Source: a virus
Virus record (IMG/VR): IMGVR_UViG_3300045988_098643
Span: 1-36,918 of that record
DNA: 36,918 nucleotides
Strand: one strand, 5' to 3'
Under the pieces are notes generated by a model, which was not told where the DNA came from, did not search any database, and was given only the letters and a program-made list of their open reading frames with translations. Made by a program: the position numbers and the translations under genes. Below, piece by piece: positions 5,129 through 36,918 of this stretch. How positions within the stretch are numbered: position 1 is the stretch's first letter; each line of letters opens with the position of its first letter.

Positions 5129-7948
5129 TTAACTCCAACTTAAAGTTCCGTCTGTATTAAAAATTATTGTTTTATTGCTCACAGTTATTCTGTTGCAATA
5201 TAAAATCCCTTCACAATCGAAGTTCGTATTGCAAGATACTCCGTGGCTTACATTTCTTATTTTTCGATAGCCTCCACTGTCAAGATACAGCCCACCTGCA
5301 TTGAGTTCGTAGAAATATCCAGCTCCAACAGCAGCAACTGTTCCGTCGATTTTAACTTCCCCACGACCACCTGTATCTCGTATCTTCACATATCCTGAAT
5401 TCGCTCCAAAATTTGCTGAAGTACCGTTAAATCGTGCAGTACTACCATAACCATTCACACCACTAGTAAATCCATTTCCATTGAATGTTCCTCTCGTGAT
5501 GTTACTTGCGTTCAAATTATCAACATTGATGTATTGTGCATTTATTGTTCCGCCATTGATTTTGTCCGCACTCAGACTACTGATTTTCGCACTTGTAATT
5601 GCTGCATCTTGTATTTCAGCTGTACCTATTGCTCCGTATCCGATTTTTGCATTTGTAATCGAAGCGTCTTTGATTTTCGCACTTGTAATTGCTGCATCTT
5701 GTATTTCAGCTGTACCTATTGCTCCGTATCCGATTTTTGCATTTGTAATCGAAGCGTCTTTGATTTTCGCATTCGTAATTGCACCGTCTTTGATTTCAGC
5801 ACTATCGATAGCTCCATAACCAATCTTTGCATTTGTAATTGCTCCATTTTCAATCTTCGCGTTTGTTATAGCACCGTCTTGTATTTCAGCTTTTCCAATC
5901 GCACCTGTACCGATTTTCGCATTAGTTATTGAGCCGTTCGCAATCTTCGCATTCGTGATTTCTCCGTCTTCGATTTTTGTCCTGTCTATCGCCGCATTTG
6001 CTATCTTCGCGTTTGTTATTTCTCCATCTTTGATTTTTGCTCTGTCTATTGCACTGTTTGCTATCTTTATGTTTGTGACAGCACCATTCTCTATCTTTGC
6101 ATTTGTAATAGCAGCGTTTTGAATGTGCACTCCTCGCACCGCATTTTGTGCGATTTTATCGCCGTCGATTGCATCATCTTGTATTTTTGAATTGCTTATA
6201 GCTCCACTCTGAATCTTTGAATTACTAACTGCATTGTCTTTCAACTTTGTATTATCGACTGCACCATTTCCGATTTTTGTGTTTGATACTGCACCGTCTT
6301 TGATTTTGTCATTCGTGATTGCTCCATCTTTGATTTTGCTTTCAGATACTGTACCTGTAATGATTTTGTCGCCATCGATTTTGTCAATGGATGTGCCGTC
6401 TACAATACTTCTTCCGTCAACTGATTTGATGATATCGCCGAAGTTGAATTCGCCTGTATCCAAATTCAGAAAACTTTTTGCGTTTTTGTCTTGTAGAATT
6501 CCTGTACGGACTAGGTTGGCGTTGAGTGTTCCAGAGTTTATCACGTCTGCAACAATACCCTCTCCAGTCGCCCACGTAGTCCAATCAAAAGTTCCGTCTG
6601 CACGTTTTCGATTTGATATAGCGACTTTTCCTGCACCTATCCAAATCCCTTTTGTTGGATTCTTGTCGATTGGTCTGTTGAATGTGTACAGACCTGGAGC
6701 AAGGTTATACTTGTTTCCACGCTTTAAATCGTATTTATACGCATCATCGTCAAACATCGACTTTTCTAGTTCATTTCTCATTTGCCCTAGATTAATCGTC
6801 ATCGACGTCTGCACTTCATCTTTCAGATTATCAATCTTCGACTCAATCAACTTCCCATAATCGACTTTTGCAATACTCAAATTATCGCCAAGTGTAACCT
6901 CTGAATTTTCTCTAGTTATCAGATTTCTTTTTATCTTGAACACTCTCGAACGATACTGCACATCTATATCTTTTCTAATTATGATTATAGAATCTCCAAG
7001 CTCCACTTCTCCGCTATCTCCAATCGTTGTTGATAGCTGCACCTTTGGTCTGCAGTTTTCAACCAACGTTTCATAAGCTTTTTGGATTAGTATGTTAGGG
7101 TCTTCGATTTCATCAAACACAACAATTTTATATCGTGCTTTTCCATCTGAAAATCCGTGTTGTAGTGTCATTTCAGGAATTTCTAAATAATCTTTTCCTT
7201 TAGCTTTATTGAGTGGATTTCCCTTTGATTTGCTCCACTCAATATCCGTTATCTGTATTCTTCTACCAAAACCGCCTGTCGCGTTTCCGTCTTCGTCGTA
7301 TTTTTCCTCGCCCTTACCACGTGGAACAATTGCCGTGAATACATTTTGTCTATCTATTTCCTTGTCTACATTTATGGCTTTATGTCCGTAAACATATCTA
7401 TTGTGCGTTACTTTTCCTCTTTTTTCGTAAACGTCCACATATCTTTTCGTTATTTTGTTTTCTGAAAATACCAGTCTGAAACCAAGCTCAACCTGAAAAC
7501 TTTCAATAAGTTTTGTCAATGCCTCAGCTCTAGTATTATCGTATAACATCAAATTAGCGTTTTTGTTTGTCAGTACTTTTCCGATTTCCCATCTACTGCC
7601 ATTAAGCACCTTGCCTAACGCAGTCGATACCGATGCATTTGTCAGCCTTTCTTCTCTGATATATCCGTAAAACATCATTTCATCATACACAACGTGTACA
7701 GCTGTTATTGATATTCCCTCTTCTGCAGTCTTTATGCTTACGATTTTATACAGTTGAAACGCCGTGTCGTCTGCTTGGTCTTTGTGTCCGATGTAAATTA
7801 CATCTTTCAACTTTTTAAACATATCCATTTCCACGACAACTTCCAATGTCATCGTCTCAGATAATCCCTCAGTTTGTTCCGCCGATATTACACTATCTTT
7901 GTATATTATGTCTGTTAGTTTTTCGTTTGCATCAAATAAATAAAACAC
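5129..7948 (-). CDS. Tail-associated lysin/Tal-like minor structural protein (prophage endopeptidase tail type) with a long 10-residue repeat domain
   Basis: 939 aa, positioned after Dit. The N-terminal part looks like a phage minor structural protein. The C-terminal half carries roughly 28 decapeptide repeats (G-A-I-T-N-A-K-I-x-D). Confidence 0.85.
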   Translation of the reverse strand: MFYLFDANEKLTDIIYKDSVISAEQTEGLSETMTLEVVVEMDMFKKLKDVIYIGHKDQADDTAFQLYKIVSIKTAEEGISITAVHVVYDEMMFYGYIREERLTNASVSTALGKVLNGSRWEIGKVLTNKNANLMLYDNTRAEALTKLIESFQVELGFRLVFSENKITKRYVDVYEKRGKVTHNRYVYGHKAINVDKEIDRQNVFTAIVPRGKGEEKYDEDGNATGGFGRRIQITDIEWSKSKGNPLNKAKGKDYLEIPEMTLQHGFSDGKARYKIVVFDEIEDPNILIQKAYETLVENCRPKVQLSTTIGDSGEVELGDSIIIIRKDIDVQYRSRVFKIKRNLITRENSEVTLGDNLSIAKVDYGKLIESKIDNLKDEVQTSMTINLGQMRNELEKSMFDDDAYKYDLKRGNKYNLAPGLYTFNRPIDKNPTKGIWIGAGKVAISNRKRADGTFDWTTWATGEGIVADVINSGTLNANLVRTGILQDKNAKSFLNLDTGEFNFGDIIKSVDGRSIVDGTSIDKIDGDKIITGTVSESKIKDGAITNDKIKDGAVSNTKIGNGAVDNTKLKDNAVSNSKIQSGAISNSKIQDDAIDGDKIAQNAVRGVHIQNAAITNAKIENGAVTNIKIANSAIDRAKIKDGEITNAKIANAAIDRTKIEDGEITNAKIANGSITNAKIGTGAIGKAEIQDGAITNAKIENGAITNAKIGYGAIDSAEIKDGAITNAKIKDASITNAKIGYGAIGTAEIQDAAITSAKIKDASITNAKIGYGAIGTAEIQDAAITSAKISSLSADKINGGTINAQYINVDNLNASNITRGTFNGNGFTSGVNGYGSTARFNGTSANFGANSGYVKIRDTGGRGEVKIDGTVAAVGAGYFYELNAGGLYLDSGGYRKIRNVSHGVSCNTNFDCEGILYCNRITVSNKTIIFNTDGTLSWS
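5581..5760. repeat. Exact 2 x 90-bp tandem duplication inside the Tal repeat domain
   Basis: 5581..5670 is identical base for base to 5671..5760. Each copy encodes KIKDASITNAKIGYGAIGTAEIQDAAITSA. Confidence 0.95.
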
Positions 7949-8797
7949 CTACAGCACCTTCTCCCTGAAATACACCTCAGTATTTTTGTATGAATTTGAG
8001 TACAGCTCATCTCTGTAATTTACCGCGAAATCCTCAAAATCAGAAAATATATCTAATTTATCTATCAAATTCTTACCGCTTGTATCTCTTACTTCTCCGT
8101 TTTTTATATCAAGCACGACGTCAATAACCTCGTGATTTGGATTATTAATCTTGATAAATGTTCCAGAAGTGATATTTTTAATCATCAAATTATCCATATC
8201 TTTAGAAATAAATGACCTTATTTCTTCTACGTCCGATTCATACTTGCCGATGTAGTTAAATTCTTTTTGCGTTCTAGGTTCAATAATAAATTTTTTTAAC
8301 GTCTTTCTGTACTTGTAAGGGTCTATACATTCAAACGTAAAATTTGATATAAAATTAAATTTATTTGCTTCTAACTCATTGAAATTAGATAACGTGCCGA
8401 TATAATAAAAATCTCCATCATCAGAAAAAGAAATCTGCACTTGCTCACGATTTGCGTAATATATCAAGTCGTTAAATCGTCTCAGTATTTCTTGCTCCGT
8501 TTGACACTCCAACAAATATTCAATCGTTAGAGTTCTAGACGGCAACGAAGAAAAACCAAACTTATTAGTCTGCACGGCTTTTCTTCTACCTCTAATCGAC
8601 GTTTTATTATTAATTTTGCTTATTTGATAGTTAGAGGTACTAATATTTCTACCGATAATCTCTCGCCCATACACATTCAAGGTCGTATACCCTGGAACAA
8701 CTCTGTCTAGATTAGTTCCATCAATAAAAACATCGATTATGTTTTCACGCTCAGGTGCTGTCTCATTGATATCTACAAATTTATATATTTTTTTCAC
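7949..8797 (-). CDS. Distal tail protein (Dit)
   Basis: 282 aa, lying between the tape measure and Tal genes (conserved synteny). Confidence 0.7.
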   Translation of the reverse strand: MKKIYKFVDINETAPERENIIDVFIDGTNLDRVVPGYTTLNVYGREIIGRNISTSNYQISKINNKTSIRGRRKAVQTNKFGFSSLPSRTLTIEYLLECQTEQEILRRFNDLIYYANREQVQISFSDDGDFYYIGTLSNFNELEANKFNFISNFTFECIDPYKYRKTLKKFIIEPRTQKEFNYIGKYESDVEEIRSFISKDMDNLMIKNITSGTFIKINNPNHEVIDVVLDIKNGEVRDTSGKNLIDKLDIFSDFEDFAVNYRDELYSNSYKNTEVYFREKVL

Positions 8798-12229: not shown

Positions 12230-12736
12230 TTATTCTGCTTTTTTTGTTGTGTCTTCAAATGCGTATGCAACAGCTTCTAATTGTTCATTAGTAAATGTTG
12301 CTTCGCCCTTTTGTCTTGTGAAATCAGTCTTAAAGCTACCGCTAATTTCCAATAAATCTTCGTTACCACTTTTCGCTGTAATTTCTGTTAGTGTACCTTG
12401 ACGATAAACCGCAGGGTATTTTTGTTTCTTCTTGAAACTTCCGTCCTCATCTGTCAAGTTCAATTCCCACAACTCCATTTTTTCGCCTGTTTGCATTGCT
12501 TCTTCCAAGTAATCATATATTGAATCTTTGTTATCTACAAACGTTGTGAATGAAATTTCTTCTTCTGTTGATGACGATGTGTTGATAGTCGCAAATTTTG
12601 TTTTTGAGCTGTCACTATCCGCAGACAACTTAACTTCGTGTTCTGTTTCATATATCATCAATTTTGCGTTTTCTTCTTTTTGTTTCGATAACTTTCTCCA
12701 CAATAAAACGACGTCTTTACCTTTTACTGCTCCCAT
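12230..12736 (-). CDS. Major tail protein (TP901-1-like by size and position)
   Basis: 168 aa. Position upstream of the chaperones. Strong RBS context. Confidence 0.7.
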   Translation of the reverse strand: MGAVKGKDVVLLWRKLSKQKEENAKLMIYETEHEVKLSADSDSSKTKFATINTSSSTEEEISFTTFVDNKDSIYDYLEEAMQTGEKMELWELNLTDEDGSFKKKQKYPAVYRQGTLTEITAKSGNEDLLEISGSFKTDFTRQKGEATFTNEQLEAVAYAFEDTTKKAE

Positions 12737-12745
12737 TTATTCCTC

Positions 12746-13135
12746 CTATAAAAAGCTAAAATCCAATTCTAATATTCCGTGGAGTAACATCTTATCTGTT
12801 GTGTTATCTCCAGTGATTTGAATATTAGAATCATTTAAAGAAAATCTATATCCGTTTTCTTTTTTCGTCTCTTTTATACGTTGCAAACACTTATTTATCA
12901 ACTCCGAAAAACTCCCTCTTTTAGTGTATTCATCACTATAAAAGTGAATTCTCATTGTTACTTTTGCTCCGTATCCCCATTTTGTCCTTATGTCATCTGA
13001 AAAACACTCGCCAATGTAAACAATAGGATACTCAACTCCCAAACCTGGAAGATACTCGTATATATGCTTTTCATCTACAATCCCAGCTAATGTTTTTCGT
13101 GTAAATTTGATTATGTCATTAATTGGTGATTTCAT
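12746..13135 (-). CDS. Tail terminator / tail completion protein
   Basis: 129 aa. Assigned by synteny between the gp10-like and major tail genes. Confidence 0.55.
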   Translation of the reverse strand: MKSPINDIIKFTRKTLAGIVDEKHIYEYLPGLGVEYPIVYIGECFSDDIRTKWGYGAKVTMRIHFYSDEYTKRGSFSELINKCLQRIKETKKENGYRFSLNDSNIQITGDNTTDKMLLHGILELDFSFL

Positions 13136-13476
13136 TTTTTAAATAACTTGTTTGTTCTTTCTACGAATTCTTTAGTCGCCTTGTCATACGCAGGTCGTAC
13201 ATACGGCTGAGCATTCATCTTCCTAGTTCCATACTCAACGTATCCTGCATAATTTGCCGTAGGTTCTATTTTTGCCGTTAATCCAAGGTCTTTGATTGTG
13301 ATAAAAATACTTCGCTTTAAAAATCCCGTGTCGACTGGCACACGCCTTTGTTCTTCAATATGACACATCGACCCACAATGTTTTACAATTTTGGTCATTT
13401 CCGTTTGTGCCAATTTTGGAGCTTTTTTAAAGTAATTCATCAACTCATTCAAGCCTTTAAATTCAATACTAGCCAT
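13132..13476 (-). CDS. HK97 gp10-family head-tail joining protein
   Basis: Motifs VPVDTGFLKRSI and AGYVEYGTRKMNAQPYVRPA. The likely start is MASIEF at 13476 after GGGAG. Confidence 0.8.
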   Translation of the reverse strand: MASIEFKGLNELMNYFKKAPKLAQTEMTKIVKHCGSMCHIEEQRRVPVDTGFLKRSIFITIKDLGLTAKIEPTANYAGYVEYGTRKMNAQPYVRPAYDKATKEFVERTNKLFKK

Positions 13477-13771
13477 TATCAACACTCCCATAAATTGCAA
13501 CATCGTCTCTGTATGTTTGAATAGATTTGATTTTGTACAGCTTATTTTTGTATTTAACTAAGTTGAAATCAAAATCGATGCCGTTTTTCATTCTGAATAC
13601 TTTTGTATCAGTTTCTATATCTCCAAATAAAAGTTTTTTATTCTCAGCCGATACGCCACTCACATACGCCATCTTTTCTACAACCTCAACATATTTGTTT
13701 ATCGTGTCGCCTGTGTCGTAATCGTACTCAGTCTTTGATTTTATAAGCTTAATTGACTTGTCATATCTCAT
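13469..13771 (-). CDS. Head-tail adaptor / head closure protein
   Basis: 100 aa. The pattern (AYVSGVSAENKKLLFGD...KVFRMK...YKIKSI) fits the phage head-tail joining family. Supported by synteny. Confidence 0.65.
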   Translation of the reverse strand: MRYDKSIKLIKSKTEYDYDTGDTINKYVEVVEKMAYVSGVSAENKKLLFGDIETDTKVFRMKNGIDFDFNLVKYKNKLYKIKSIQTYRDDVAIYGSVDNG

Positions 13772-14118
13772 AGAAATCTCACGACCTTATCGCTGTAATA
13801 TTCGTCCTCATCGTCTTCCTTTAAAAACCTATCAATATCTTCCAGATACTCATCAAAATCCTTGGAGAGGTATGTTGCAGAATGACCCTCAACGGATTCA
13901 CTCTGCATTCCCTCGCTACCAACTCTATTAAACCTTTTGATACTAACTTCAATTACAATATAGTTGAGTTTTTCTGGTATTTTCTCATACTTTTTAGGAA
14001 GATAGCTTTTTAATCTTTCTTCTACTAACTCAACTATATTTTTGATTAATTCCTTTTGAGTATCTGTAATATTTTTATCTGGGAAGACTAAAGAACAAAC
14101 TCTTTCTACATTTCCCAT
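13768..14118 (-). CDS. Head-tail connector (gp6-like)
   Basis: 116 aa immediately downstream of the major capsid gene. Confidence 0.6.
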   Translation of the reverse strand: MGNVERVCSLVFPDKNITDTQKELIKNIVELVEERLKSYLPKKYEKIPEKLNYIVIEVSIKRFNRVGSEGMQSESVEGHSATYLSKDFDEYLEDIDRFLKEDDEDEYYSDKVVRFL

Positions 14119-32176: not shown

Positions 32177-33580
32177 ATGAATACAGACAAAAAACCATTT
32201 TATTATAACAGAATATTTTTGAACTTATTATTTATATTTGGTGGTCTAACTTTAATCCCACCATTCATAATTTTAGGAGTTCCAATTCTCGTATTGGCGT
32301 TTGTACTTAATAAAAAAGCAAACGCAAAATATCCACAATACTCAATCAAAAACATTGAAGAATTTGAAGAAAAAAACAAACTATTAGGTGATATTGAACA
32401 AATAAAAAAACAAAAAGAAAACACAGTTGAGGAAGCAAATAAGCTAAAAGAACAAACTGAAAAAGAGCACGAAGAACTAATAGAAAAAACTGAAAAAGAA
32501 TATGAACGCCTAAAAGAATCTAAAATAAAAGAAATCGAAGACTTAGAAAAAATTATAGATGATTATTCTAAAGAATTAACTGTTAAATACATTGATACTA
32601 GAGACTACAGCGATATTACATCTGCCCAGATAAAAAATGAAATTTCACTTGTTAATTTAAAAATCAAAGAATTAATAAAATCGGGAAAAGCTGTTAGAAT
32701 ATCCTACTCAGATTCTAATAAAAGAGATAACAACTTAACTAAACAAATACTTAAAAATTTCACATCTGACGCTAATATCATACTAAATAAACTAACACTA
32801 TCCAATGTAGACTCATCAAGAGCAAGAATAATCAAAGCCTTTGAATTAACGAATAAAATTTTTGCAGAAGATTATATACAAATAAAAAAAGAGTATTTAA
32901 ATTTAAAACTTGAAGAATTAAATCTTTACCATCAATATAATCTTAAATTAGAGCAAGAAAAAGAACAACAAAAAGCTATCAGAGAGCAAATGGTAGAAGA
33001 AGAAAAAGTTCGTAGAGAAATAGAAAGAGAAAAAAGAAAGATTGAAAAAGAAGAAATTCAATTTAGAAATGAACAAAATAAATTAATGTTATATTTAAAC
33101 AAAGCAAAAGACGATATCGAAAAGAAATTATATCTTGATAAAATCAAGGATTTGGAAGAAAAACTTAAACTACTTGAATCAGATAAAAAGAACGTATTTG
33201 ATAGAGAAGCAAATACTCGTGCAGGATTCGTGTATGTAATATCCAACATTGGCTCTTTCGGCGAAGACATCTACAAAATAGGAATGACAAGAAGACTAGA
33301 ACCAATGGATAGAATCAAAGAACTTGGCAGTGCTTCCGTTCCTTTTGAATTTGATGTCCATGCAATGATATTTTCAGACGATGCTCCAAGCTTAGAAACA
33401 ACCTTGCATCAAAAATTCAGGGATAGAGAAGTTAATAAAGTAAATCAACGCAAAGAATTCTTCAAAGTACCACTATCAGAAATAGAACAAGTAGTAAAAG
33501 AAAACTACAACGCCACTGTTGAATTTACAGAAATAGCTAAAGCAGAACAATACAGACAAACTTTAGCTATGACTAAATAA
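32177..33580 (+). CDS. Membrane-anchored coiled-coil protein with a DUF4041-like region and a C-terminal T5orf172/MUG113 (GIY-YIG superfamily) domain
   Basis: N-terminal TM (LLFIFGGLTLIPPFIILGVPILVLAFVL), a long K/E coiled coil, and a C-terminus GFVYVISN...YKIGMTRRLEPMDRIKELGSASVPFEFDVHAMIF...LHQKFRDREVNK...EFF. Confidence 0.75.
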   Translation: MNTDKKPFYYNRIFLNLLFIFGGLTLIPPFIILGVPILVLAFVLNKKANAKYPQYSIKNIEEFEEKNKLLGDIEQIKKQKENTVEEANKLKEQTEKEHEELIEKTEKEYERLKESKIKEIEDLEKIIDDYSKELTVKYIDTRDYSDITSAQIKNEISLVNLKIKELIKSGKAVRISYSDSNKRDNNLTKQILKNFTSDANIILNKLTLSNVDSSRARIIKAFELTNKIFAEDYIQIKKEYLNLKLEELNLYHQYNLKLEQEKEQQKAIREQMVEEEKVRREIEREKRKIEKEEIQFRNEQNKLMLYLNKAKDDIEKKLYLDKIKDLEEKLKLLESDKKNVFDREANTRAGFVYVISNIGSFGEDIYKIGMTRRLEPMDRIKELGSASVPFEFDVHAMIFSDDAPSLETTLHQKFRDREVNKVNQRKEFFKVPLSEIEQVVKENYNATVEFTEIAKAEQYRQTLAMTK

Positions 33581-34770: not shown

Positions 34771-34990
34771 ACTCGGTAAATACTCTGTAAATATTTTTAA
34801 AACGTTGAAATTATAAGGTTCGTAGGATACTCCTCATCTCCACCATATATTTTCAAATTAGCTCATTACAACTCAAAACGTTGATAAATGGGCTTTTTTA
34901 TTTTTTTAATGTCGGTATTTTTATCTAAATATCTCAAGTTTTTTCAAAATTTTTCGGTAAAACTTTCGGTAAGAATTTTTCTGCACTGAT
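34771..34990. other. Candidate attP region
   Basis: Lies directly downstream of int. Contains a tRNA/tmRNA 3'-end-like string GGTTCG...CATCTCCACCA (34818..34846), flanking direct repeats AAAACGTTGA (34799 and 34875), and (T)CGGTAA-type motifs at 34773, 34912, 34954 and 34966. Confidence 0.35.
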
Positions 34991-35114: not shown

Positions 35115-35142
35115 TTGACTTTTTAATTTATTACGATATAAT
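35115..35142 (+). promoter_or_regulatory. Sigma-A-type promoter (chassis copy 2)
   Basis: TTGACT-16 nt-TATAAT. 27 of 28 nt are identical to 36101..36128. Confidence 0.7.
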
Positions 35143-35148
35143 TAAATC

Positions 35149-35228
35149 ATCAAGCATAGTTTGAGTATGATGTAATCATATAGGTATTAGAAAGGCACTC
35201 ATTAAAGAGTGCTTTTTCTTTTTTCTTC
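35149..35228 (+). ncRNA. Small RNA (~80 nt) carrying a solitary 36-nt type II-A-like CRISPR repeat mimic (35159..35194)
   Basis: The consensus promoter lies 7 nt upstream of the predicted start. The intrinsic terminator is GCACTC-ATTAAA-GAGTGC plus a T-run (35195..35228). There is no ORF. The body GTTTGAGTATGATGTAATCATATAGGTATTAGAAAG resembles GTTTTAG-type II-A repeats. Confidence 0.45.
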
Positions 35229-35816
35229 TTCCAGTCTTTCTCTAATTTCTTTCATTTGTCTCCAGTCGTATGTTCCCTTTGCGTAAATTCTAGCATCAAC
35301 TCTATTTTTAAAACCTTCATATATTTCTAAAATTTGTTCATAATTAAAGTTATATAAATATAAATCTTTTATATCGTGTGATAAATACATATCTAAAATA
35401 TAAATTTCTTTTAAAGTATCGTGTTTTTCTTTTCCATCGTAGTCGTCTTCTAAATAAAGTAATACATTATTGATTTGAACTATAGTTTCATTATCGTATA
35501 GTTTTAAAATACATCTTCCAATTTTTTTCTTTAATTCTAAATCATTTTCTCTGTTTCTGTGGTAGCACATTTCAAATAACATTTCTGCAACGAAATCTTC
35601 GTCGAAATCTAATTCCCCATCGCATTCTTCATTTAACATATTCCAAACTGGAAGCGATAATAAATAACAATGAAAACATTCGATAGCAGCTATTATTTTT
35701 TCTTCATCTGTATTAATATCTTTATCTATATAGTTATAACTTTCAATATTTTGTTTTCCGTTCAACCATCTTGTGTTGTTTTTGATTTCTATACTTTCTA
35801 ATTTTAAATTCTTCAT
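35202..35816 (-). CDS. Acidic 205-aa hypothetical protein (candidate anti-defence protein)
   Basis: Starts MKNLKLESIE with ATG at 35816 after AAAAGGAGAAAAAAG. Driven by the palindrome-bearing promoter. No domain recognised by eye. Confidence 0.7.
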   Translation of the reverse strand: MKNLKLESIEIKNNTRWLNGKQNIESYNYIDKDINTDEEKIIAAIECFHCYLLSLPVWNMLNEECDGELDFDEDFVAEMLFEMCYHRNRENDLELKKKIGRCILKLYDNETIVQINNVLLYLEDDYDGKEKHDTLKEIYILDMYLSHDIKDLYLYNFNYEQILEIYEGFKNRVDARIYAKGTYDWRQMKEIRERLEEEKRKSTL

Positions 35817-35860
35817 CTTTTTTCTCCTTTTATTTTTTACATTTCCTTTACTGTAACTAT

Positions 35861-35889
35861 AGTATAACATAGTATTAATACTATGTCAA
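35861..35889 (-). promoter_or_regulatory. Sigma-A-type promoter with palindromic operator (copy A)
   Basis: Minus strand TTGACA (35889..35884), 17 nt, TATACT (35866..35861). The perfect 18-bp palindrome CATAGTATTAATACTATG lies at 35868..35885. Confidence 0.7.
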
Positions 35890-35892
35890 CCA

Positions 35893-36090
35893 TTATTTCA
35901 ATTTTTTTTCAATTAAATTTTTAAACTCAATTAATTCTTCTTTTGTCGCAAACTCTCTTATATATCGTCTACAGCTCGACCTCAAAGAACTAATTCTTTT
36001 TCTTTCTCGTGCCTCAGGATTATTTTTTAAATACCTTTTGTCTGCTTCTAATTGTTGCTCAATGTCTTTATAGCCTTTTCTTTTTGTCAT
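35893..36090 (-). CDS. Small basic 65-aa protein (candidate regulator of the duplicated promoters)
   Basis: Starts MTKRKGYKDIEQQ with ATG at 36090 after GGAGAAATGT. Helical and basic (RERKRISSLRSSCRRYIREF). The track ORF start at 36141 reads into the array promoter. Confidence 0.6.
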   Translation of the reverse strand: MTKRKGYKDIEQQLEADKRYLKNNPEARERKRISSLRSSCRRYIREFATKEELIEFKNLIEKKLK

Positions 36091-36100
36091 ACATTTCTCC

Positions 36101-36128
36101 TTGACTTTTTTATTTATTACGATATAAT
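36101..36128 (+). promoter_or_regulatory. Sigma-A-type promoter (chassis copy 1) of the mini-array
   Basis: TTGACT-16 nt-TATAAT. A mirrored ATTATA (36133..36138) forms a possible overlapping divergent -10 box. Confidence 0.7.
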
Positions 36129-36141
36129 ATAAATTATACAA

Positions 36142-36230
36142 ATAGTTCCCGCAAACGCGGGTGTGACCCTTTATAGTTAAGGGTAAGATCTAACGATCTC
36201 AATTAGTTCCTGCAAACGCAGGGAAGGAAG
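36142..36230 (+). CRISPR. Cas-less mini-CRISPR array: two type I-E-like 28-nt repeats flanking one 33-nt spacer
   Basis: R1 is ATAGTTCCCGCAAACGCGGGTGTGACCC (36142..36169). The spacer is TTTATAGTTAAGGGTAAGATCTAACGATCTCAA (36170..36202). R2 is TTAGTTCCTGCAAACGCAGGGAAGGAAG (36203..36230), with a compensatory stem change and a degenerate 3' end. Confidence 0.65.
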
Positions 36231-36258
36231 CTCTCTTTATGAGAGCTTTTCTTATTTT
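36227..36258 (+). terminator. Intrinsic terminator of the mini-array transcript
   Basis: GAAGCTCTC-TTTAT-GAGAGCTTT followed by TTTCTTATTTT. Overlaps the stop codon of the convergent CDS at 36252. Confidence 0.7.
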
Positions 36259-36869
36259 CTATATTTATTTACTACATTTATGTCAGTAGTTTCAAAAGTG
36301 TTGCCATCGACAGTTATATAATAAGTTGGTAGCTCATCATCATCGTATATAGGACCAGTAATACTTGCTTTATCATCATTTTCTAGGCACTTTTCGCTTT
36401 CTCTTATAGACTCTCTATCTTCAAGCATTTGTCTTCTCACAGCATTTATCACATTATCAAGTTCGTCTCTAGTAATATCAATTTTTTTATCTCTCCATCT
36501 TTGACATTCTTCTTGTTCCAGATCTAAAAAACCATGGTATAAATCTCCATATATGTTTTGAGGACTATTTTTTTCTTTAACTTTTTTGTATTTTTTTAAT
36601 AACTCTTGATAATAATCTTCGTTCCAAGCTCTTTGGCTTTCAATTTCTCTTTTAAAGTTGTTTATATAAATTTTTAATGATTTTTCAAGCGTATCGTGAT
36701 TATAAGAATCTTCTTCAAGAAATTTTGTAATCAAATCTCTATAATCTTTTTTTGTCATCTTTTCTACATTTCTGTTATACATTCCACAAATGTAACTAAA
36801 GTCTGTATTTGACTTCACTCTATACTCTTCGAATTCTTCCCATAATTCTTCTAAATTTTTATCTTTCAT
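36252..36869 (-). CDS. Acidic 205-aa hypothetical protein (candidate anti-defence protein)
   Basis: Starts MKDKNLEELWEEFEEY after AAAGGAGAAAAATT. Its 5' UTR and RBS are homologous to those of 35202..35816, but the proteins are unrelated by eye. Confidence 0.7.
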   Translation of the reverse strand: MKDKNLEELWEEFEEYRVKSNTDFSYICGMYNRNVEKMTKKDYRDLITKFLEEDSYNHDTLEKSLKIYINNFKREIESQRAWNEDYYQELLKKYKKVKEKNSPQNIYGDLYHGFLDLEQEECQRWRDKKIDITRDELDNVINAVRRQMLEDRESIRESEKCLENDDKASITGPIYDDDELPTYYITVDGNTFETTDINVVNKYRK

Positions 36870-36896: not shown

Positions 36897-36918
36897 CCTT
36901 TACTGTAACTATAGTATA
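36897..36918. repeat. 22-nt terminal identity with window positions 1..22
   Basis: CCTTTACTGTAACTATAGTATA occurs at both ends of the window and at 35845..35866. Confidence 0.95.

Follow-up and report, generated by a model that had tools for sequence, protein, structure and literature searches.

A cas-less type I-E mini-CRISPR in a temperate phage of Finegoldia magna, a proposed RNA anti-CRISPR

Anatomy and CRISPR origin of the unit

Near one end of the virus record IMGVR_UViG_3300045988_098643 (IMG/VR; 36,918 nucleotides (nt), the whole of which we analysed and refer to as the window), positions 36,101 to 36,258 hold a compact unit made up of a promoter, two repeats (R1 and R2) with one spacer (S1) between them, and an intrinsic terminator (Table 1). 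A sequence-only reading of this DNA had taken the unit for a phage-borne, cas-less CRISPR mini-array, with a single spacer, type I-E-like repeats, and a promoter and terminator of its own. The places that it gave for R1 and R2 and their start-to-start distance of 61 nt were confirmed directly in the sequence; its promoter and terminator stood as well and are conserved in all relatives described below, except that the gap from the promoter end to R1 measures 13 nt and not 14. R1 is laid out as 6 nt, a CCCGC stem, an AAAC loop, a GCGGG stem, and then TGTGACCC, an end that would supply the 5′ handle of a CRISPR RNA (crRNA). R2 keeps the hairpin as CCTGC/GCAGG, through the compensatory C>T / G>A pair relative to the R1 stem that had been pointed out before, while its handle part is swapped for GAAGGAAG, so that this terminal repeat retains the hairpin only, again as described earlier. 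The terminator hairpin occupies 36226-36250 with the T-run next to it, and it is shared tail-to-tail with a convergent gene for a protein of 205 amino acids (aa); the region holds 6 terminator-like sites where 0.5 would be expected.

Table 1. Positions of the mini-array, its neighbours and the host-targeted sites in the window, with the layout of the array in related contigs (contigs with related elements or host loci carry the prefix L; PAM, protospacer-adjacent motif)
Feature	Position	Strand	Remarks
Sigma-70-type promoter of the mini-array, TTGACT-16 nt-TATAAT	36101..36128	+	11/12 to consensus
Repeat R1, type I-E-like, ATAGTTCCCGCAAACGCGGGTGTGACCC	36142..36169	+	Covariance model 43.6 bits
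Spacer S1, 33 nt, TTTATAGTTAAGGGTAAGATCTAACGATCTCAA	36170..36202	+	Present in 18/18 related contigs, three sequence variants
Terminal degenerate repeat R2, TTAGTTCCTGCAAACGCAGGGAAGGAAG	36203..36230	+	Covariance model 36.3 bits; terminal unit common to all relatives
Intrinsic terminator, GCTCTC-TTTAT-GAGAGC + T-run	36226..36258	+	Relatives keep the terminator, changes confined to the loop
205-aa gene, function not assigned, convergent with the mini-array	36252..36869	-	Always linked to the array: 6 clusters, 18 contigs
65-aa basic protein, phrog_2277	35893..36090	-	Kept at the locus in all relatives
204-aa gene, convergent with the solitary-repeat RNA	35202..35816	-	
Second copy of the mini-array promoter	35115..35142	+	27/28 identical (96%)
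Solitary F. magna 36-nt CRISPR repeat, GTTTGAGTATGATGTAATCATATAGGTATTAGAAAG	35159..35194	+	32/36 to GTTTGAGAATGATGTAATTTCATATAGGTATTAAAC, 2-nt deletion
Terminator of the solitary-repeat RNA, tail-to-tail with the 204-aa gene	35195..35228	+	
Phage attachment site (attP) core, ...CTCATCTCCACCA, like a tRNA or tmRNA 3′ end	34817..34845	+	Window versus integrated-prophage junction L002
Protospacer, 32/33, PAM AA, mismatch at seed position 7	8142..8174	-	Spacer L131_15646
Protospacer, 31/33, PAM AA	4088..4120	-	Spacer L132_11082
Protospacer, 29/33, PAM AA	886..918	-	Spacer L132_10594
Array in L112-L118			R, S1, terminal repeat
Array in L119-L127, L139, L140			R, S2, R, S1, terminal repeat

The 18-mer AGTTCCYGCAAACGCRGG, which is common to R1 and R2, occurs exactly twice in the 36.9-kb window with up to 3 mismatches allowed, where shuffled sequences lead one to expect 0.02 occurrences. 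The predicted transcript of 124 nt forms a row of hairpins (-45.3 kcal/mol, z = -5.4). The opposite strand folds about equally well, the hairpins being nearly symmetric, and a G-U pair lengthens the R2 stem on the + strand only. We also made a covariance model of the repeats; within the window it matched R1 and R2 alone, and it scores phage units and host repeats alike. Searching the whole window against Rfam yielded no match at gathering thresholds and only chance-level ones in permissive scans; the Rfam CRISPR-DR families miss even genuine F. magna repeats. A hairpin between handle and spacer was also considered as a selected feature and was set aside, as it is significant in the window variant only (z = -2.5) and the relatives fold differently.

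The CRISPR origin of the repeats follows from their distribution. We scanned one genome per species with the pattern TTCCCGCANACGCGGGNGTGA and obtained 98 stretches, nearly all of which are real type I-E arrays with a 61-nt period, from Streptococcus, Gardnerella, Peptoniphilaceae, Aerococcus, Criibacterium, and other taxa. The 21-nt core of R1 is common to these arrays, which come from about 90 genomes, in line with the earlier assignment of the repeats to type I-E, and the Streptococcus-type repeat that the sequence-only reading had named, GTTTTTCCCGCACACGCGGGGGTGATCC, turned out to be real and widespread, being the consensus of many of the 98 stretches. R1 comes nearest to the consensus GTAGTTCCCGCACACGCGGGGGTGATCC (Neofamilia, 24/28); its identity is 22/28 to the Streptococcus type and 20/28 to the F. 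magna repeat. Its AAAC loop occurs in no genuine array among the 98 stretches, the one AAAC match (L036) being isolated and on a high-GC contig. The scan required GGGNGTGA and so could not reach the F. magna repeat (GGGGATGA); the host was reached via prophage flanks and Cas7e, as described below. Among the spacers of 98 other I-E arrays, none matched the phage convincingly. A search for the repeat motif returned chance matches in high-GC coding DNA, or none, from IMG/VR, and none from the JGI metagenomes.

The chromosomal I-E arrays of Streptococcus, Gardnerella, and Peptoniphilaceae, F. magna (GTTATACCCGCACACGCGGGGATGATCC) included, resemble the unit in their 28-nt repeat, 32-33-nt spacers, 61-nt period, CCCGC/GCGGG stem, 4-nt loop, and GATCC-type 3′ end. 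Unlike them, the unit has no leader, no cas genes, one spacer only, an AAAC loop, and a diverged 5′ flank and handle, and its natural variants show the same one or two spacers throughout, with no turnover. We are highly confident that the unit is a genuine type I-E mini-CRISPR, devoid of cas genes, of a temperate Finegoldia magna phage, and that it constitutes a small RNA gene equipped with a strong promoter and a terminator of its own. A toxin-antitoxin RNA (type I or III) and a set of operator or iteron sites for the neighbouring 65-aa gene were both considered and dropped, because the repeats are CRISPR repeats that are conserved together with the promoter and terminator.

The phage, its host and the natural variants of the array

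The first 22 nt of the window are also its last 22 nt, and the sequence exists a second time as a 36,914-bp metagenome contig in ENA, where the 205-aa gene precedes the holin and amidase of the window start. From this terminal repeat and gene order it follows that the window is a complete, circularly permuted genome. With its terminase, SPP1-type portal, tape measure, Dit, tail endopeptidase, RecT, SSB, CI-like repressor, PD-Lambda-1 defence gene, and integrase, the window is a complete temperate siphovirus. Pfam annotation found no Cas family among its genes, so that the description as cas-less held. A contig with the same integrase (L002) matches the window exactly up to 34845 and then continues into host-like DNA, which places the end of attP at that position. 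The mini-array sits in an accessory region with the lysis genes on one side and attP on the other, and this placement shows that it is truly phage-borne, as had been proposed. No DNA similar to the phage or to the locus was found in INPHARED or PLSDB. Between repressor and integrase (32177-33580), the phage encodes a PD-Lambda-1-type defence protein with SNIPE/T5orf172 domains (PADLOC E = 2e-120).

We conclude that the host of the phage is Finegoldia magna, a human commensal. The host flank of a related prophage (L112/L117) encodes proteins that fall in 90% clusters named Finegoldia magna, and a Cas7e cluster with one protein named F. magna led to contigs (L131-L135) that carry a complete I-E locus, cas3-cse1-cse2-cas7-cas5-cas6e-cas1-cas2/DnaQ. 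The arrays of these contigs contain up to 31 copies of GTTATACCCGCACACGCGGGGATGATCC, the very repeat that is printed for the isolate F. magna 09T408 (Table S2 of PMC5762925), and the mini-array is oriented like the transcribed strand of the host arrays. A second locus, on L128-L130, was examined as the possible host I-E locus and rejected, since it belongs to another organism (Peptostreptococcaceae oral taxon 929 or Fenollaria-like). That locus (~12560-14100) lacks cas1 and cas2 and has heterogeneous repeats, with several stem/loop variants in one array.

The F. magna arrays also record encounters with this phage family. We collected 81 distinct I-E spacers from the loci L128-L135 (L131-L135 from F. 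magna, L128-L130 from the other organism). Significant matches were obtained for five of the 81, all five from the F. magna arrays of L131 and L132; the protospacers in the window are listed in Table 1, and other F. magna spacers match relatives of the phage, up to 33/33. Among 6 protospacers, AA precedes 5 and TA precedes 1. The sole mismatch between the window and the best F. magna spacer lies at window position 8168, corresponding to spacer position 7. In type I-E systems this position lies within the seed, where escape mutations are expected. As F. magna spacers match the phage, we conclude that the phage lives under I-E pressure from F. magna. The expectation of a matching I-E system in a plausible host was thereby borne out: the locus is complete, it has spacers against the phage, and its repeat is closely related, the window repeat being identical to it at only 20 of 28 positions.

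Relatives of the unit were reached through the convergent 205-aa gene, which has six homologue clusters at 76-91% identity. All 18 contigs that encode these homologues (18/18) have the array immediately downstream of the gene, under the same promoter and closed by the same terminator. Including that of the window, there are seven array variants with either one or two spacers (Table 1), among them those of an element with TraG and type IV secretion system (T4SS) genes (L122-L127). In the closest relative (L140; protein 91% identical) the array has two spacers, and its S1 is the same as that of the window. The single-spacer array of the window would therefore most simply be explained as a derivative in which a deletion between repeats of a two-spacer array removed one unit.

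The comparison of the seven variants also shows what is kept. None of them shows any change in the -35 or the -10 hexamer, while the 16 nt between these hexamers vary. The stem comes in three versions, CCCGC/GCGGG, CTCGC/GCGAG, and CCTGC/GCAGG, and across 13 phage and host repeats 65 of 65 pair cells are paired. Two stem pairs at different positions have changed on both sides, each as a compensatory change from C-G to U-A; when the pairing register is shifted, the paired fraction falls to 20-55%. A stem that is conserved, fully paired, and compensated rules out chance and an inert relic, and indicates selection on the RNA hairpin. Conservation of the spacing and the hairpin in related elements, as the earlier reading required, was thus found, compensatory changes included.

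In their repeats, the relatives come closer to the host (22-23/28) than does R1 of the window (20/28). Some of their units have a stem-loop identical to that of the host (CCCGCACACGCGGG) and the same last 7 nt, ATGATCC, and the loop reads ACAC in several units. The handle of the window R1, GTGACCC, differs from the host's ATGATCC at 2 of 7 positions. In Streptococcus thermophilus, the I-E crRNA is 61 nt long and has a 7-nt 5′ handle. If that handle length applies here, the relatives would make a host-perfect handle. As to the spacers, S1 of the window and of L112 agree at 29 of 33 positions, with the neighbouring gene 86% identical at the DNA level; S1 thus diverges about as fast as that gene, which points to weak sequence constraint on S1. 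S2 is 32-33 nt long, with a 1-nt deletion in two lineages. None of the 9 variable sites of the two spacers falls within the first 12 nt; S1 is invariant over its first 12 nt and S2 over its first 17 nt.

Sister cassettes under the same promoter

The window contains a second copy of the mini-array promoter, followed by a solitary 36-nt repeat and a further terminator (Table 1). This repeat is preceded by a leader of only ~10-13 nt, and the whole unit, with the same promoter and terminator, is also present in L122, L123, and L125. The F. magna repeat that it resembles, GTTTGAGAATGATGTAATTTCATATAGGTATTAAAC, has been reported as specific to F. magna (PMC5762925). We regard 35115-35228 as a candidate solitary-repeat RNA anti-CRISPR, or short-guide RNA, for a presumed type II system. 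Repeats of 36 nt with ~30-nt spacers are typical of type II, and a F. magna Cas9 with a usable single-guide RNA exists. Two other identities of the unit were tried and rejected: as a DUF3800-I RNA it scores 29 bits against a cut-off of 44, in an alignment that rests on the AT-rich promoter and terminator, and as an attP for integration into a CRISPR array it conflicts with the attachment core, which ends elsewhere, at 34845.

A third cassette, again with this promoter in front, occurs in relatives, namely a two-spacer array whose repeats agree at 25-27 of 30 positions with published Finegoldia 30-nt (I-B-like) repeats. Its terminal repeat lacks the handle part, and it has its own terminator. 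The array lies at ~5440-5739 (minus strand) of L112 and is found also in L120, L121, L122-L126, and L139; both of its "spacers" start with (G/A)TATTTGTAATT and contain palindromes. In the slot that this array takes elsewhere, L116 (~5560-5705) and L117 (~1415-1559; minus strand) have a hairpin-rich short RNA with a similar promoter (TTGACTTTTTAACC...TATAAT). The window itself thus holds the I-E array and the solitary 36-nt repeat, and the 30-nt-repeat array is found in relatives. Judged from their sequences, the window and its relatives together appear to hold mimics of every Finegoldia repeat class, each with the same promoter, its own terminator, and a tail-to-tail arrangement with a protein gene. 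In L112, moreover, the I-E array directly follows the att-proximal sequence that in the window precedes the solitary-repeat unit, which suggests that cassettes have been swapped by recombination at the shared promoter.

The 205-aa protein has no family match, and its structure model (pLDDT 78) has no fold match at E <= 0.001 in PDB or BFVD. Upstream of the 204-aa gene (window 35848-35890) and of the 205-aa gene (36899-36918, running on into 1-47) lies nearly the same sequence, with a perfect palindrome, ACATAGTATTAATACTATGT, adjoining a TTGACA-17-TATACT promoter. This palindrome looks like a shared operator, possibly for the phrog_2277 protein, by analogy with Aca-controlled anti-CRISPR operons. 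The mini-array unit overlaps the upstream region of the gene for this 65-aa protein, on the opposite strand. A match to the 65-aa protein occurs in Fusobacterium phage FNU4 (L003; OQ808964.1, 1315-2898), inside a longer hypothetical coding sequence that adjoins a gene annotated as "putative CRISPR-associated protein Cas5"; prophages of Streptococcus agalactiae carry further homologues at their lysogeny-conversion end, close to paratox and Abi genes.

What the RNA may do

The sequence-only reading had left it open whether the unit serves as a guide or as a decoy. The context leans toward an anti-CRISPR, above all through the solitary repeat of a second type under the same promoter. At a probability of about 0.5-0.55, we favour an RNA anti-CRISPR of the Racr or Cracr kind that blunts the I-E immunity of the host against the phage or prophage. 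We infer the following course of events: the unit would be transcribed, the Cas6e of the host would cut the ~120-nt transcript at the base of both repeat hairpins, and the product would be a ~61-nt crRNA in which R1 supplies a handle of 7-8 nt, followed by the 33-nt spacer and the hairpin of R2. Loaded into the host Cascade, this crRNA would inhibit immunity by competing with the ~30 host crRNAs for Cas6e and Cascade, or by forming unproductive complexes, or by re-directing Cascade. We favour the RNA anti-CRISPR because the sister cassette under the same promoter is a bare 36-nt repeat that has no spacer to guide with, all host repeat classes are covered, and the host targets the phage. The preference over a guide is also backed by the repeats being diverged rather than identical to those of the host, and by the lack of a spacer target. 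There is precedent for such an action, as competition from a non-targeting crRNA or repeat RNA has been shown to inhibit immunity (PMC10651486) and two-spacer I-E arrays of prophages act as anti-CRISPRs (10.1101/2024.10.29.618823).

Several observations weigh against this preference. An I-E array is present in only 1 of 17 published Finegoldia genomes, that of 09T408 (PMC5762925). The mismatched handle of the window R1 may make Cascade loading inefficient. In their length (32-33 nt) the spacers are canonical, their first base is T, as in host spacers, and the handle and hairpin of the relatives are host-perfect, as a working guide needs. The confinement of the variable sites to positions beyond nt 12 (p ~0.02 if they were evenly spread, with few independent events) hints at a seed-dependent guide rather than filler. 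Lastly, the missing spacer target is weak evidence, because the collections that we searched contain almost no Finegoldia phages, and neither INPHARED nor IMG/VR gave a DNA match to the phage itself.

In the main rival reading, a phage-chosen crRNA (from S1, or from S1 and S2 in relatives) would direct the host Cascade-Cas3 to destroy competing Finegoldia phages, plasmids, or conjugative elements, providing superinfection exclusion as has been shown for the mini-arrays of archaeal viruses. The canonical spacers with their T start, the stem-loop and 7-nt handle that relatives share with the host, and the invariant PAM-proximal ends beside variable distal positions all fit such a guide, viral mini-array spacers mostly target related viruses (review PMC11656645), and a target could easily be missed in collections with almost no Finegoldia elements. 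Even so, no protospacer for S1 or S2, of the kind that the guide envisaged by the earlier reading calls for, came to light in the collections searched: there was none in the window, the 18 related contigs, the F. magna cas locus, INPHARED (matches at chance level), PLSDB, or IMG/VR, and none in the published Finegoldia spacer tables, and the three matches in JGI metagenomes end at the pattern's 22 nt, as expected by chance. In two lineages S2 has lost 1 nt, which would disrupt its pairing over the full length of a fixed target. Elements that are only 82-95% identical in the DNA of the neighbouring gene have inherited the same two spacers with unchanged content, and the spacerless sister cassette cannot guide cleavage. 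We therefore consider a guide rather unlikely, while taking it seriously. We give less credence still to a regulatory RNA of the Cracr or CreR kind, which would re-programme Cascade through partial PAM-proximal pairing and repress a host promoter (that of cas, a CRISPR-guarding toxin, or another defence gene) without cleavage. Such an RNA would explain why R1 keeps the handle and R2 the hairpin only, the creR/creA pattern (10.1101/2023.03.10.532045), why invariance is limited to the PAM-proximal third of both spacers, and why S2 tolerates an indel; prophage I-E arrays of two or three spacers are, moreover, the reported Cracr format (10.1101/2024.10.29.618823), and the common 5′ end of the I-B-like "spacers" in relatives is what variants of one target would show. 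However, PAM-proximal matches of S1 and S2 in the 21-kb F. magna I-E locus (L131-L135), the cas3 promoter region included, are no better than chance, being a few dispersed 9-nt runs that fall within genes and have no AA PAM. The covariance model detected no CreR-like degenerate repeat outside the array in that locus, and the full-length spacers of 33 nt contrast with the 21-24 nt of Salmonella Cracr and the 22 nt of Gardnerella CreR-like elements. A regulatory role thus appears improbable.

Finally, the unit might be an inert relic, i.e., a chance fragment of a host array, or a DNA-level site with hairpins for protein binding, recombination, or attachment. The near-symmetry of the hairpins, with both strands folding about equally, the overlap with the upstream region of the 65-aa gene, and the shared-promoter copies, which look like recombination points between cassettes, could all be read in this way. 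Against it stand the promoter, spacing, and terminator that are kept in 7 variants on phages and on the TraG/T4SS element, the compensatory stem changes, the orientation that matches the transcribed strand of host arrays, the G-U pair that extends the R2 stem on the + strand only, and the location of attP elsewhere, ending at 34845. We hold this to be very improbable.

Comparison with known systems places the unit close to several described kinds without making it identical to any. Viral mini-arrays (PMC11656645; validated for the Saccharolobus portogloboviruses SPV1/SPV2) likewise have 1-2 spacers of canonical length, host-type repeats, no cas genes, and a dependence on host Cas proteins. Here, correspondingly, there are two repeats with a canonical spacer, no cas gene on the element and a cognate operon in the host, and repeats of host type whose stem-loop and handle appear preserved, with the same 5-bp stem. 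In those mini-arrays, however, repeats are typically identical to the host's, whereas here they have diverged (20-23/28); their spacers typically match related viruses, whereas none were found to do so here, under very poor coverage of Finegoldia; and the present unit has its own dedicated promoter and terminator and stands beside mimics of the host's other repeat classes. Racr RNAs (RacrIF1, RacrIE1/2; PMC10651486) are likewise repeat-mimicking small RNAs of prophages, with a strong promoter directly upstream, a subtype matched to the host, and an accessory locus with small genes of unassigned function, and their proposed mode is competition for Cas proteins. The promoter of our unit, 13 nt upstream, falls well within their distance of <=250 bp, and its repeat subtype is the I-E of the host. 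Racr is a single repeat, a format found in the neighbouring unit at 35159-35194; the I-E unit differs in having two repeats and a full spacer, so that a complete crRNA rather than an aberrant sub-complex would be expected.

The Cracr array of a Salmonella prophage (CracrIE; 10.1101/2024.10.29.618823) is likewise a prophage I-E array of stacked format, with 1-3 spacer-like units and degenerate repeats, and its RNAs, like the one proposed here, would be processed by host Cas6e and compete with host crRNAs. Cracr RNAs are modelled on host CreR/CreA elements (10.1101/2024.10.29.618823; 10.1101/2023.03.10.532045) and are defined by a match to host CreR/CreA and to a promoter target; within the F. 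magna I-E locus, to which our search was directed, no such match was found. Their spacers measure 21-24 nt in Salmonella against 33 nt here (32-33 nt for S2), and they stack variants of one type in a single array, whereas the Finegoldia elements have separate same-promoter cassettes for each CRISPR type. CreR/CreA elements themselves (10.1101/2023.03.10.532045) likewise keep the handle part in the first repeat and only the 3′ hairpin part in the last; they are located within cas loci and control the promoters of cas or toxin genes, while the present unit is on a phage.

Small arrays were also noted elsewhere. On the host chromosomes of L083 (6488-6563, minus strand), and also of L054, L075, and L108 (Gardnerella) and L015 (Arcanobacterium), a promoter is followed by an I-E repeat, the 22-nt spacer-like TTCTATGTTTTGCGATATATAG, a second repeat that is degenerate, and a terminator. 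The large open reading frames that come next downstream in L083 resemble cas3/cse1/cse2/cas7 by size and order only. To judge from its sequence, this element looks like a host CreR-type autoregulatory mini-CRISPR that is conserved across two genera. A Peptostreptococcus metagenome-assembled genome (L091, 1524-1612, minus strand) has a single-spacer I-E mini-array with a full repeat, a 33-nt spacer, a hairpin-only repeat, and a terminator, on a 2.8-kb contig without clear genes that is otherwise unrelated to this phage.

The identity of the unit as a mini-CRISPR is secure, and its kind has already been described between 2019 and 2026 (mini-arrays, Racr, Cracr); new are a member from a Finegoldia phage and promoter-standardised cassettes that cover several CRISPR types. 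We tentatively suggest, as a possibility that we rate at somewhat less than even, that Finegoldia phages and the TraG/T4SS element carry a standardised island in which one promoter (TTGACTTTTTWATT...TATAAT) drives mimics of three repeat classes (30-nt I-B-like, 28-nt I-E, and 36-nt type II-like), each RNA tail-to-tail with a protein gene of unassigned fold, and in which the cassettes are shuffled at the shared promoter. If this is true, one locus would disarm or re-programme all host CRISPR systems through RNA, possibly with partner proteins.

Hardly anything is known about the phages of Finegoldia magna, which acts as an opportunistic pathogen on skin, in wounds, and on implants. To the few CRISPR RNAs known to be encoded by viruses, the present locus adds a well-resolved case from a Gram-positive anaerobe, with the host, the host array, anti-phage spacers, and seven natural variants in hand. 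These variants, with one or two spacers, three stems, and a host-perfect or diverged handle, form a test series for the acceptance of a foreign crRNA by Cas6e and Cascade. The occurrence of two repeat-class mimics here and three in relatives, all under one promoter, suggests that RNA counter-defence can be modular and directed at several CRISPR types, in contrast to earlier descriptions, which mainly concern variants of a single type.

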